Both the position numbers and the translations under genes were made by a program. From the NCBI GenBank assembly GCA_026125445.1, contig JAHCLE010000002.1, positions 946 through 64,945 of the forward strand: a DNA stretch of 64,000 bases, written 5' to 3'. Shown one piece after another: positions 54,596 through 59,552 of the stretch (position 1 is its first letter; each line of letters starts with the position of its first letter). Under the pieces are notes generated by a model that was not told the DNA's origin, searched no databases, and worked only from the letters and a program-made list of their open reading frames with translations. This DNA is from Burkholderiales bacterium (lineage in GTDB: Bacteria > Pseudomonadota > Gammaproteobacteria > Burkholderiales > Usitatibacteraceae).

Positions 54596-54669
54596 TGGAG
54601 GCAGGGAGCGGAATCGAACCGCTGTACACGGCTTTGCAGGCCGCTGCATAACCACTCTGCCACCCCGCC
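54596..54669 (-). tRNA. tRNA-Cys (anticodon GCA), CCA encoded
   Basis: Reverse complement GGCGGGGTGGCAGAGTGGTTATGCAGCGGCCTGCAAAGCCGTGTACAGCGGTTCGATTCCGCTCCCTGCCTCCA. Confidence 0.9.
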
Positions 54670-54854: not shown

Positions 54855-54959
54855 ATGGACAATGCGCGCGGCTGGTCAAATACGACATATAGGTATCAAC
54901 GGCTCGGCCCATCCGCTGCCGGGCAGTCTGCGATGGCCGGGCCCGATCAGAAGCGGGCC

Positions 54960-56651
54960 ATGCGCACCCTATATCGATTTGCGGTCGCCGCCTTGATGGC
55001 GATCATCCCTTCCCTCCCCGCGTTCGCGGCGGCGGAGACGGCTTCCCCGAATTACCAGGGCCTGTGGTGGAACTCCCCGCCGGAGTCGGAATCGGGCTGG
55101 GGCATCAACCTCGCGCACCAAGGCGACATAATCTTCGCCACCTGGTACACGTACGATGCGGACGGCAAGGGTTGGTGGCTGTCCATGACGGCCTACAAGA
55201 CCGCGGAACGGACCTACAGCGGCACGCTCATCGAGGCTTCCGGGCCGGCGTTCAGCGCCGTCCCCTTCAATCCCGACAGGGTGACCCGCAACGCCGTCGG
55301 CGTCGGCACCTTCGTGTTCCGCGATCTCGACAGCGGCACTTTCACCTACACGGTGAAGGGCGAGCAGCAGACGAAGTTCATCACGCGGATGGCGTACGGC
55401 CCGGTGCCTACCTGCACCGAGGGCACCCGGGCTGAGCTCGTGGCCGCGAAGAACTACCAGGATCTGTGGTGGGTCCCGGACGGGACGGAATCGGGGTGGG
55501 GGATCAACCTGGCGCATCAGGGTGACATCGTCTTCGCCACCTGGTACACCTATGGCGGCGACGGCAGGCCCCAGTGGCTTTCCGCGACGGCATTTCCGAT
55601 CGGACAGGGCATCTACAGCGGCCAGCTGATCCGGACCACCGGCCCGGCCTTCAAGGCATCGCCTTTCGATCCCGCGATGGTGACCCGCTCGGTCGTGGGC
55701 ACCGCGACCTTCACCTTCGCCAATGGCAATTCGGGTCAGTTCGAGTACACGCTGGACGGGGTGCATCAGGCCAAGGCGATCACGCGCCTCATGTTCAGCG
55801 CAACCACCGGGACGCGATGCGGCGAGCCCCATCGCAACGTGGCACCGGTCACGGTCGTGGCGGTGGGCGACATCGCCGAGTGCGGTGACAAGCCGGCAGG
55901 ACAGAGCGGCGCGGCCCGCACGGCGGAGCTCGTGCGCGACAGCGACAGCCTCATCCTGACGCTGGGCGACAACGCGTACCAGACCGGAACGCCCGACGAG
56001 TTCGCGAACTGCTACCACCCCACCTGGGGCCGCTTCAAGGACAGGACCCGCCCCACTCCCGGCAATCACGATTACTACACCACCGGCGCCGAGGGCTACT
56101 TCGACTATTTCGGCGACCGGGCAGGGCCGGACCGGCGGGGATACTACAGCTTCGACCACGGCAGCTGGCACTTCATCTCGCTCAACAGCATGGCCGACCT
56201 CTCGCCGCAGTCCGAGCAGTACCGCTGGCTCCTCGCCGACCTCGAGAAGTCGCGCGACAGCCTGTGCACCATCGCCGTCCTGCACTACCCTGCATTCAAT
56301 TCGGGCGCCGCACACGGCAGCAACGCGACTTCGAAGCAGGTCTTCGAAACGCTGCGCAACGCGGGCGTCGAATTGCTGCTTTCCGGGCACGAGCACGTCT
56401 ACGAGCGCTTCGGGCCACAGAAAGGCGACGGGACCTCGGACCCGGCTCGGGGCGTGCGCCAGTTCGTCGTCGGCACCGGCGGCGCGTCCCTCCACCAATT
56501 CAGCGCGACCCTTCCCCACAGCCAGTTCCGCCTCGCGACCAGTTGGGGAATCCTGCGCCTCGCGCTGGGCCATGGCAGCTACAGCTGGCAATTCGTGCCC
56601 GCAGGCGGCGGAACGCCCCTCGACGCGGGCAGCGCGAACTGCCACCGGTAG
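54960..56651 (+). CDS. secreted protein: signal peptide + two copies of an unassigned ~116-136 aa domain + purple-acid-phosphatase-like metallophosphoesterase domain
   Basis: Signal peptide MRTLYRFAVAALMAIIPSLPAFAAA. Phosphoesterase motifs 'GDIAECG', 'GDNAY', 'GNHDY' and 'GHEHVYER'. Alternative start at ATG 54933. Confidence 0.8.
   Translation: MRTLYRFAVAALMAIIPSLPAFAAAETASPNYQGLWWNSPPESESGWGINLAHQGDIIFATWYTYDADGKGWWLSMTAYKTAERTYSGTLIEASGPAFSAVPFNPDRVTRNAVGVGTFVFRDLDSGTFTYTVKGEQQTKFITRMAYGPVPTCTEGTRAELVAAKNYQDLWWVPDGTESGWGINLAHQGDIVFATWYTYGGDGRPQWLSATAFPIGQGIYSGQLIRTTGPAFKASPFDPAMVTRSVVGTATFTFANGNSGQFEYTLDGVHQAKAITRLMFSATTGTRCGEPHRNVAPVTVVAVGDIAECGDKPAGQSGAARTAELVRDSDSLILTLGDNAYQTGTPDEFANCYHPTWGRFKDRTRPTPGNHDYYTTGAEGYFDYFGDRAGPDRRGYYSFDHGSWHFISLNSMADLSPQSEQYRWLLADLEKSRDSLCTIAVLHYPAFNSGAAHGSNATSKQVFETLRNAGVELLLSGHEHVYERFGPQKGDGTSDPARGVRQFVVGTGGASLHQFSATLPHSQFRLATSWGILRLALGHGSYSWQFVPAGGGTPLDAGSANCHR
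55044..55799 (+). repeat. tandem intragenic domain repeat (copy 1 55044-55451, copy 2 55452-55799), paralogous to 56867-57619
   Basis: Both copies start NYQ(G/D)LWW..ESGWGINLAHQGD..F..W.TY. One run shared with 56867-57619 (tcggaatcgggctggggcatcaacctcgcgcacca) is identical at DNA level. Confidence 0.85.
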
Positions 56652-56678
56652 GACCTAGGTCGCCTCCTGCAGCACCCG

Positions 56679-56694
56679 CTTGACCCCCGTCAAC
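56679..56694. promoter_or_regulatory. FNR/CRP-family box cTTGAC-CCCC-GTCAAc
   Basis: Perfect TTGAC-N4-GTCAA, about 105 nt upstream of the ATG at 56792. Confidence 0.5.
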
Positions 56695-56791
56695 ACGGGG
56701 CCTTCCCTCGACGCGCCGAATGGGGGGGTTGACTCATTGGCCCGGCTACCCGCGGCCATGCGGTTCAGCTGCCGGGCAGGAAGGAGTGATC

Positions 56792-59407
56792 ATGCGCTCT
56801 GCGTCCCGCCTTCTGTCCGGCTTCGCCCTCACGATCCTGCTGTCCTTTCCCGCGATCCCGGCGGCATCCCCCAACTACCAGGGCCTTTGGTGGAATTCGC
56901 CGGCCGGCTCGGAATCGGGCTGGGGCATCAACCTCGCGCACCAGGGCGACGTCGTCTTCGCCAGCTGGTTCACCTACGACGCCGGCGGCAAAGGATGGTG
57001 GCTGTCCATGACCGCCACCAAGGCGTCGGAGGGAACCTACAGCGGTGCCCTGATCGAGACCACGGGGCCGGCGTTCTACTCGATGCCCTTCGATCCCGCG
57101 AAGGTGGCGCGCACCGTGGTCGGCAGCGGCACGCTTGCCTTCCAGGACGCGGACAACGGCACCTTCAGCTACACCGCGAAGGGCGTCCAGCAGTCCAAGT
57201 CCATCACGCGCCTGGTCTTCGGCTCGATGCCCACCTGCGCCGGGGCGTCGCAGGCGGAACTCGCGACCGCAACCAACTACCAGGATCTGTGGTGGGCAGC
57301 CGGCGGCACCGAGTCGGGCTGGGGCCTCAACCTCGCGCACGAGGGCGACATCATCTTCACGTCCTGGTTCACGTACGGCACGGACGGCAGGCCGGCGTGG
57401 CTGTCGGCCACGCAAACGAAGGTCGCCCCCAATGTCTACACGGGACAGCTGATCCGGACCACCGGCCCGGCCTTCGGCACGCCCTTCGATCCCGCGAACG
57501 TCGCGCGCACGGTGGTGGGCTCGGCGACGCTCTCCTTCTCCAACGGAAACGCCGCGGCGTTCACCTACACGCTGGACGGCATCACCCAGACCAAGCCGAT
57601 CACCCGCGTCCTGTTCGTTCCGCCCGTGGGCACCTGCTGCGGGCCGAAGCTCGCGACGACGATCACGGGCAAGGTCTTCGACGGCGCCATCGACAAGGCG
57701 ATCGTCTGCGCGGACGCCGACGGCGACGGCCGGTGCGGGCCGGGCGAGTCCCAGGCGCTGACCGATGCCACGGGTGCGTATGCGCTCGCGGCGCCGGATG
57801 GCTACAAGGGCCCGCTCGTCGCGGAGGTGGTCGCCGGCCAGTCGCGCGACGCGGACCAGCCGACGGCGGTGGAGCGCTCCTACCGCATGGCCTCCCCGTC
57901 GCGGGAATACAGCACGAACATCACGCCCTTCACCACGCTGGTGCGGCTTGCCGGGGACGCCGACTACCGGCTCGCCGAGGAAATCGTGCGCAACGAGCTG
58001 GGGCTCCCCCCGCGATTCGTCATCAACCTCGCCGCCGCTCCCGCCGCCGGGACCCTGACGAAATCGGTGTCGAGGTCGATCGTCGCCGCGCTCAAGGATG
58101 CGCCCTCGACCCTCGATTTCTCCTCGCCCGATGCGCTGGCAACGGTGGTCGCGCACTTCCCCACCCCCCTCGCGCAACTGCCGAGGATCGACATCAACAC
58201 CCACGGGGATCCGATCACCTCGCGCGAGACCTACGTCGACGGCCACTTCACCCTTGCCAACCCGGCTTCCGACGCGCCGCCGGTGCTGCTCAACGGCAAG
58301 ATCCGCGGCCGCGGCAACAGCACGTGGTGGGAGGCCAAGAAGCCCTACAAGGTCCAGATCACCAACGACGACGCCTATGCGGGCATCGCGGACTTCTTCG
58401 GCATGAGGAAGAACCGCAACTGGGTGTTGCTCGCCGACCACCTAGACCACTCGCTGCTGCGCAACAAGCTGGCGTACTCGCTGGGCAACAGCAGCGTCTT
58501 CAGCGACGGGCTGAAGTGGAACCCGTCCGGCCAGCACGTCGAGGTCACCCTCAACGGCGAGTACATCGGCGTATACCTCTTCGCCGAGGACATCCGCATC
58601 GACTCGACGCGCCTGAACATCAAGAAGATGAGTTCGTCGGCTTCCGCCAACCAGGTCGACGGAGGCTACATCGTCGAGGTGGACTACCCGCAGGATTGCG
58701 ACGTGATCCTGCAGTACACCACGCCGAAGGGCGTGCGCTTCTGCATCGACACCCCCGACGAGACGGCGATCACCCCGGCGCAGAACCAGTACGTCCGGGA
58801 CTACCTGAAGGCGGTGGAGTCCGACATCTACGGCAGCGGGAGCCTCGCCCGCATCAACGCCGCGAGCTTCGCCGACTGGTACCTGCTGCAGGAGCTCTTC
58901 CGAAACCAGGACGCCGTCTTCTACTCGAGCGACCGCATGTGGAAGGACACCGACTCCGCGGCGATCCCCGGCGACCGCGTCCTCAACATCGGCCCCATCT
59001 GGGACTTCGACATCTCCGCAGGCAACAGCGACCAGTACCAGACGGAGGGATGCTGGGTGAACAAGGGCCTGGACGACATGATTCCCAACTGGCCCAACTG
59101 GTACCGCAGGATCTTCGACCACCGCGAGTTCCTGGACCTCACGATCGCGCGCTGGAAGGACAAGCGGCCGGCGCTCGAAAGGTTCGTCAACGCGAGCATC
59201 GCCACCTATGCCCGGAGGCTCGAGAGCGCGCAGGCCCGCAACTTCGAGCGCTGGCCGGTGCTCGGAACGGACACGTGGAACAACCACTACCTCTTCGAGT
59301 CCTGGGAGGAGGAAGTGGCCTTCGTGAGGCGCTTCCTGAACGATCGGATGGCCTGGATGGACAGGGCCTTCGCGAGCCCCGAGGCCTACGTCGCGCTTTG
59401 CAAGTAG
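56792..59407 (+). CDS. secreted protein: signal peptide + the same two unassigned domains + linker with DADGDG motif + CotH kinase-like domain
   Basis: AAGGAG RBS. Signal peptide MRSASRLLSGFALTILLSFPAIPAA. C-terminal 'IRGRGNSTWWEAKKPYKVQI...NWVLLADHLDHSLLRNKLAYSLG...VTLNGEYIGVYLFAEDI' matches the CotH family pattern as I recall it. Confidence 0.8.
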   Translation: MRSASRLLSGFALTILLSFPAIPAASPNYQGLWWNSPAGSESGWGINLAHQGDVVFASWFTYDAGGKGWWLSMTATKASEGTYSGALIETTGPAFYSMPFDPAKVARTVVGSGTLAFQDADNGTFSYTAKGVQQSKSITRLVFGSMPTCAGASQAELATATNYQDLWWAAGGTESGWGLNLAHEGDIIFTSWFTYGTDGRPAWLSATQTKVAPNVYTGQLIRTTGPAFGTPFDPANVARTVVGSATLSFSNGNAAAFTYTLDGITQTKPITRVLFVPPVGTCCGPKLATTITGKVFDGAIDKAIVCADADGDGRCGPGESQALTDATGAYALAAPDGYKGPLVAEVVAGQSRDADQPTAVERSYRMASPSREYSTNITPFTTLVRLAGDADYRLAEEIVRNELGLPPRFVINLAAAPAAGTLTKSVSRSIVAALKDAPSTLDFSSPDALATVVAHFPTPLAQLPRIDINTHGDPITSRETYVDGHFTLANPASDAPPVLLNGKIRGRGNSTWWEAKKPYKVQITNDDAYAGIADFFGMRKNRNWVLLADHLDHSLLRNKLAYSLGNSSVFSDGLKWNPSGQHVEVTLNGEYIGVYLFAEDIRIDSTRLNIKKMSSSASANQVDGGYIVEVDYPQDCDVILQYTTPKGVRFCIDTPDETAITPAQNQYVRDYLKAVESDIYGSGSLARINAASFADWYLLQELFRNQDAVFYSSDRMWKDTDSAAIPGDRVLNIGPIWDFDISAGNSDQYQTEGCWVNKGLDDMIPNWPNWYRRIFDHREFLDLTIARWKDKRPALERFVNASIATYARRLESAQARNFERWPVLGTDTWNNHYLFESWEEEVAFVRRFLNDRMAWMDRAFASPEAYVALCK
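56867..57619 (+). repeat. tandem intragenic domain repeat (copy 1 56867-57274, copy 2 57275-57619), paralogous to 55044-55799
   Basis: Copy 1 is the same length (136 aa) as copy 1 of the upstream gene. Copy 1 resembles copy 1, and copy 2 resembles copy 2. Confidence 0.85.
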
Positions 59408-59476: not shown

Positions 59477-59552
59477 TGGAGCGGCAGAAGAGTCTCGAAC
59501 TCTCGACCTCAACCTTGGCAAGGTTGCGCTCTACCAACTGAGCTACTGCCGC
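59477..59552 (-). tRNA. tRNA-Gly (anticodon GCC), CCA encoded
   Basis: Reverse complement GCGGCAGTAGCTCAGTTGGTAGAGCGCAACCTTGCCAAGGTTGAGGTCGAGAGTTCGAGACTCTTCTGCCGCTCCA. Confidence 0.9.

Follow-up and report, generated by a model that had tools for sequence, protein, structure and literature searches.

Two adjacent genes in a 64,000-nucleotide stretch of a Burkholderiales metagenome-assembled genome (MAG; contig JAHCLE010000002.1, positions 946 to 64,945, the whole of which is termed the window herein) each encode a Sec-type signal peptide and, behind it, two copies of one motif. Together, the two copies make up a module of about 250 amino acids (aa) that has no database name and is found on thousands of exported proteins from abundant, little-studied Betaproteobacteria of soil and sludge, a lineage that includes a core activated-sludge family. 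Our preferred reading, which we put forward tentatively, is that this module is a non-catalytic, portable tag for targeting or retention that binds a common extracytoplasmic ligand. The sequence family, its obligate Cys-bearing pairing and its scale are undescribed in the resources that we searched; its fold class, a small meander barrel, is familiar, and so is the kind of element, namely a portable accessory module carried by exported enzymes. A profile of the module would annotate these proteins at once and mark them as extracytoplasmic.

Both genes were taken from the open reading frame (ORF) list and lie on the forward strand, as do all of their parts given below. Gene 1 (54960..56651; 563 aa counted from MRTLYRF) encodes a signal peptide, the paired module (hereafter the didomain) and a purple-acid-phosphatase-like metallophosphoesterase, while gene 2 (56792..59407; 871 aa) encodes a signal peptide, the didomain, a region of approximately 230 aa without assignment and a CotH domain. 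In gene 1, the first copy (barrel A, aa 29-146) spans 55044..55397 and the second (barrel B, aa 163-279) spans 55446..55796. They are joined by the linker GPVPTCTEGTRAELVA (55398..55445), which holds an invariant Cys152 at 55413-55415, and are followed by a short module tail, SATTGTRCG (55797..55823), with a second invariant Cys287 at 55818-55820. The same plan recurs in gene 2, with barrel A (aa 26-143) at 56867..57220, the linker GSMPTCAGASQAELAT at 57221..57268 (Cys149 at 57236-57238), barrel B (aa 160-275) at 57269..57616 and the tail VPPVGTCCG at 57617..57643, which holds both Cys282 and Cys283.

A first, sequence-only reading of this DNA had proposed four copies, two in each gene, and these proved real by pairwise identity, shuffling and translated search alike. 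Global pairwise identity was 68.6% between the two first copies and 65.5% between the two second copies, and ranged from 50.9 to 59.8% for the four cross pairs, which bears out the proposal that each copy is closest to the one at the same position in the other gene. All copy pairs scored 24-36 standard deviations over shuffled sequences (n = 200), and tblastn with a single copy against the whole window found four places (E 1e-34 to 1e-80) and no fifth copy. On the strength of these z-scores and E-values, a chance or low-complexity repeat was ruled out. At the DNA level, the didomain modules of the two genes were 76% identical across 764 nucleotides. The consensus that had been drawn up from the four copies (NYQ[GD]LWW .. 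ESGWG[IL]N .. F..W[YF]TY .. GPAF .. ITR) was correct; of the statement that copy 1 measures 136 aa in both genes, the equal period stands, at 134 aa from NYQ to NYQ in each (a 117-aa core plus a linker of approximately 17 aa), and the figure of 136, which depends on where boundaries are drawn, does not.

Database searches agreed with the earlier view that the repeat matches no named family. Against Pfam-A, the window proteins matched Metallophos and CotH alone at E<=1, both outside the repeats; among 32 family members the module drew sub-threshold noise alone, and among 79 full-length members there was nothing above threshold on the module and no family common to all. NCBIfam gave no match to the repeats, and neither phmmer nor profile searches of PDB sequences matched the module. 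Every public name among the homologues was "hypothetical protein", and full-text literature searches with the lineage and the motif strings ESGWG, NYQGLWW, FATWFTY and NYQDLWW turned up no account of it.

When 1.84 billion representative proteins were searched exhaustively with a profile, 8,289 representatives were recovered at E<=1e-3, 1,861 of them at E<=1e-30, and architecture was counted in the best 150 of the 8,289. Exactly two copies were present in 149 of these 150, and three in the remaining one (P0053, from metagenomes). The didomain stood at the protein C-terminus in 130 (87%), behind the signal peptide as in the window genes in 17, and internally in two; C-terminal forms leave a uniform 8-residue tail ending ..PGTVC[QR]. 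Stand-alone proteins consisting of a signal peptide and a didomain were also observed in metagenomes (P0165 and P0183, with 307 and 290 aa). Within genome assemblies, which held more than 580 confirmed matches and several module loci per genome, the module was found mostly in Casimicrobiaceae, Usitatibacter and unclassified Betaproteobacteria or Burkholderiales MAGs. Transformation with plasmids is reported for one member of this lineage, Casimicrobium huifangae SJ-1 (PMC13515534). A third homologue search (query P0051), into a more distant branch, yielded 10 short metagenome proteins alone.

The passengers fused to the module are diverse. Across the 79 full-length members they included Peptidase_S8, Lipase_3, GH113, BNR, GSDH, DUF1800, LRR and CotH domains, as well as the propellers RCC1, Kelch, NHL, YncE and DUF5122; metallophosphoesterase is also a module passenger, and many passengers had no Pfam match at all. 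Approximately two-thirds of the representatives passed a crude signal-peptide test, with many of the failures being fragments. A lipobox-like motif was found in just 3 of 150, which ruled out a lipoprotein (SLP-like) reading. The mapping of spread and fused domains that had been suggested alongside the consensus has thus brought out a family of thousands with diverse partners and a mostly C-terminal module.

Pairing is fixed across this family in geometry as well as in number. Exactly two Cys residues were present in 229 of 234 modules, one in the linker (..PTC..) and one behind barrel B (..GTxC), and the linker measured 17 aa in 158 of the 234 didomain proteins. Both Cys were invariant in the alignment of the 79 full-length proteins (A2); in a further alignment (A3) the linker Cys was invariant and the second (C262 of the query) nearly so. 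Mean identity differed little between same-position copies (0.588 and 0.583) and cross pairs (0.543), and the copy classes were therefore compared by column signatures. At column 6, 230 of 234 first copies carry G and 210 of 234 second copies carry D, and a simple classifier told first from second copies with 98% accuracy over the 234 didomain proteins. The four copies in the window classify by their position, with two first-type copies in barrel A (log-odds +38 in gene 1 and +29 in gene 2) and two second-type copies in barrel B (-32 and -37, respectively). These family-wide positional signatures indicate that the pair is an ancient fixed unit, not the product of local tandem duplication. N-terminal-type modules had another N-terminal-type module as nearest neighbour in 30 of 37 cases, and the gene 1 and gene 2 modules grouped among them, together with their orthologues. 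The proposal that an existing pair of domains was copied as a unit and then attached to different catalytic domains is supported by the signatures, by the Cys and linker geometry and by this grouping, and it generalises beyond the window.

Structure prediction with AlphaFold2 (AF2) and Foldseek comparison, also suggested by the sequence-only reading, yielded confident 8-stranded barrels and weak structural matches alone. The single-domain model, made for barrel A of gene 1 with the family alignment, is an 8-stranded meander with a predicted local distance difference test (pLDDT) score of 87.8. The didomain model consists of two packed 8-stranded barrels in a fixed arrangement (pLDDT 93.1, predicted template modelling score [pTM] 0.88), with one extra strand in each Cys segment (query residues 126-131 and 258-263); the linker of gene 1 is predicted as a strand and then a short helix. 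Because each Cys segment adds a strand of its own, the two strands most likely pair, and both Cys would then form a single disulfide linking linker to tail. Against the PDB, the single barrel gave weak matches to calycin-type and designed barrels, including C8-gamma, nitrophorins, crustacyanin, CRABP-II, ApoD, anticalins, 6czj and 9hag (E 1e-3 to 2e-2, query template modelling score [TM] 0.46-0.59, Foldseek probability ~1.0), and its top 50 matches were soluble barrels alone. A search of viral structures (BFVD) gave nothing useful (best E 2.4e-3, TM 0.44, for a protein with no name).

These matches raise the question of whether the barrels work as carriers of the lipocalin or calycin type, each with a small hydrophobic ligand (for example a lipid, polyisoprenoid, tetrapyrrole or siderophore) in an internal cavity, and either supply the passenger with a cofactor or substrate or use that ligand to seat the protein in the outer-membrane lipid or lipopolysaccharide layer. 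Lipocalins and designed ligand-binding barrels are indeed the best single-domain structural matches, and the predicted 8-stranded antiparallel up-and-down meander is the topology of lipocalins, nitrophorins, C8-gamma and the designed barrels 6czj and 9hag. Yet the domain, at approximately 117 aa, falls far below the 160-180 aa of lipocalins, and target-normalised TM is just 0.3-0.4. The lipocalin C-terminal helix is missing from the models, in which DSSP assigned no helix past strand 8 of barrel A save the 6-residue linker helix, and there is neither a sequence match to calycin barrels nor a lipocalin Pfam match (E<=1). The module also differs from calycin barrels in being always paired, in its conserved Cys pair and in its fusion to enzymes. 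Judging from the strand pattern, the hydrophobic strand face is full of invariant aromatics (F, Y and W) and would be a filled core, and a cofactor role is ill-suited to subtilase, LRR and propeller passengers. We regard a carrier as quite improbable.

The same models bear on a further possibility, that both barrels sit in the outer membrane as integral barrels of the OmpX or OmpA type and anchor the passenger. Strict hydrophobic/polar alternation in the strands, the terminal position of the module and the aromatic end of its last strand (..ITRQVF) would be expected of such barrels. Against this, the domain looks too small: it has 117 aa, its strands are 5-14 residues long and the turns at either end are short, whereas the smallest 8-stranded membrane barrels known have about 150 aa and long external loops. 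The 50 best Foldseek matches of the single barrel included no outer-membrane protein, an invariant Cys pair and rigidly packed barrels (pTM 0.88) suit a soluble didomain, and N-terminal forms carry a large enzyme behind the module. Integral membrane barrels were set aside as highly improbable on size, loop lengths and Foldseek neighbours.

When the whole didomain was compared with the PDB, the best Foldseek match was TbpB (E 8e-4), a cargo protein of the type XI secretion system (T11SS) with two 8-stranded barrels. The superposition was poor (TM ~0.2, root-mean-square deviation above 20 A), and owing to this low TM we treat TbpB as a lead and not as a match. It nonetheless belongs to the case for reading the didomain as a secretion or sorting tag that is recognised by an outer-membrane translocon or a sorting enzyme, in the manner of a T11SS cargo barrel or of the C-terminal domain of the type IX secretion system (T9SS). 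T11SS cargo is defined by a C-terminal beta-barrel in one account of the system (PMC12282271). The T11SS (Slam/DUF560) cargo proteins, among them the TbpB N- and C-lobes, fHbp and hemophilin, resemble the module in having small soluble 8-stranded barrels of about 120 aa on surface or secreted proteins that leave through Sec, and TbpB shares the number of barrels. The C-terminal placement in 130 of the 150 best representatives with its uniform 8-residue tail, the highly diverse cargo, the Sec dependence of the proteins, the several copies per genome and the concentration of the family in Casimicrobiaceae, Usitatibacter and related Betaproteobacteria MAGs would all suit such a tag, which, if real, would represent a new secretion or anchoring route.

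Several observations speak against a pure sorting function. On its own, a barrel finds its structural matches among lipocalins and designed barrels rather than TbpB or fHbp; the module has no match to TbpB_B_D (PF01298) or to any other Pfam family, and handle domains are lacking. Lipoproteins are all but absent from the family, unlike T11SS cargo. Both window genes and 17 of 150 representatives place the module at the N-terminus with an enzyme behind it, and stand-alone didomain proteins occur; the short tail past the last Cys may be no more than the edge of the module. T11SS cargo genes usually adjoin their secretin, whereas no DUF560 gene lay beside the module genes at the window flanks or in two 21-kb contexts of other members, which carried Pfam-labelled but unrelated housekeeping genes. 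Nor did a recurrent outer-membrane protein gene adjoin the module genes at the loci examined: over 80 genome loci, there was no recurrent neighbour gene family beyond orthologous loci and no secretion or receptor partner. A tag read by a translocon or sorting enzyme is, on these grounds, unlikely.

A broader form of the idea, which we also consider rather unlikely, is that the module serves as the address label of an unrecognised sorting or anchoring pathway specific to Casimicrobiaceae, Usitatibacter and related Betaproteobacteria, core taxa in soil as well as in activated sludge. By analogy, such a pathway would be the functional equivalent of the T9SS C-terminal domain, PEP-CTERM/exosortase or dockerin/cohesin. 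If this were true, the module would define the whole surface and secreted proteome of the lineage, comprising thousands of unannotated proteins. Like tandem carbohydrate-binding modules (CBMs), dockerins, the T9SS C-terminal domain and PEP-CTERM, it is one terminal module on many unrelated exported proteins of one lineage. It showed no match to any of these in sequence or fold, and it differs from them in being a fixed pair of barrels with two Cys and in occurring at either protein end, and from PEP-CTERM also in having no transmembrane helix.

Binding is favoured over pure sorting because of the placement at either end, the stand-alone forms and the absence of a dedicated partner gene nearby. 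Either-end placement is as in carbohydrate-binding and anchoring modules, and stand-alone didomain proteins are better suited to a binding protein than to a pure secretion tag. As a binding domain, which is plausible, the unit would consist of barrel A (~117 aa), the 17-aa Cys linker, barrel B (~117 aa) and the short tail with the second Cys, the two barrels packing rigidly and a disulfide stapling linker to tail. The module would leave the cytoplasm via Sec along with its fused passenger, and each barrel would bind through its conserved Trp-rich and polar motifs (WW, ESGWG.N...Q, FATW.TY, Q.K.I.R). The ligand would most likely be a glycan or glycolipid that belongs to the envelope or matrix of the producing cell itself, and the two sites jointly would add avidity. 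Differing enzymes, here a phosphoesterase and a CotH kinase-family protein, would thereby be kept at one place. Binding to the envelope or matrix would explain how proteases, lipases, phosphatases, kinases and adhesin-like repeat proteins are retained at the surface or in flocs.

Some of the evidence weighs against retention by ligand binding. The module had no CBM or lectin family match, the sole hints being sub-threshold CBM_56 and CHRD matches in 3 of 32 members (best E ~0.004, for CBM_56). The strong preference for the extreme C-terminus (87% of the best-scoring representatives) and the growth of the family inside a single lineage would equally suit a sorting signal, and a calycin-like barrel could equally hold a small hydrophobic ligand inside.

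The Metallophos catalytic domain of gene 1 (55851..56402, aa 298-481) is based on a Pfam match (PF00149, E 2.5e-11) and on PDB sequence matches, the nearest of which are purple acid phosphatases (6gja, E 5e-14). The Sec-type signal peptide of gene 1, MRTLYRFAVAALMAIIPSLPAFAAA (54960..55034), was read by eye from a basic N-terminus, a hydrophobic core and an AxA-like end. The start of gene 1 is uncertain, at 54960 in the ORF list and at 54933 in the Joint Genome Institute (JGI) gene call (572 aa), with 54960 and its signal peptide being the most plausible. The corresponding NCBI protein, MCW5590576.1 (P0332 in our set), has only 324 aa and begins at Met240 (MVTRSVVG...), within the second barrel, so that the signal peptide and the larger part of the didomain are missing from the public annotation. 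Knowledge of the module can repair gene models such as this shortened one.

The product of gene 2 is an exact match to MCW5590577.1, which comes from a Burkholderiales MAG and is annotated as "CotH kinase family protein". Its CotH domain (58301..59359, aa 504-856) matches PF08757 at E 3.7e-36; CotH domains elsewhere are often fused to anchoring or binding modules, for example dockerins. The approximately 230 residues between the didomain and CotH (aa 276-503, 57617-58300) had no Pfam match at E<=1, and open with a Cys-rich segment bearing an Asp/Gly-rich motif (..CADADGDGRCGPGE..).

The two tagged genes are the sole cargo between a tRNA-Cys (GCA) gene (54596..54669, reverse strand), which forms the left boundary of the block, and a tRNA-Gly (GCC) gene (59477..59552, reverse strand), which forms the right. 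The setting is one of housekeeping genes, with a TGS-domain GTPase gene on the tRNA-Cys side and pgsA and an ORF read as uvrC on the tRNA-Gly side. The order tRNA-Cys, phosphoesterase, CotH, tRNA-Gly recurs in at least two other MAG species, at loci L001 (4161-9099) and L005 (1733-6756), and tRNA-Cys also precedes the gene at L007 and L027, which shows that the gene pair is conserved across species. The shared tag and conserved synteny suggest that the adjacent phosphatase-like and CotH kinase-family proteins may act as an extracellular phosphorylation/dephosphorylation pair at the same site.

Elsewhere, C-terminal-type didomain orthologues of approximately 727 aa were observed between parE/gyrB-like and topoisomerase genes in many MAGs, at L022 and about 9-11 other loci, and this orthology accounts for the only recurrent neighbours that we saw. 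The two-gene block in the window has a G+C content of 0.65-0.69, compared to approximately 0.72 elsewhere; the block may be an old insertion between the two tRNA genes, or the dip may reflect amino-acid composition.

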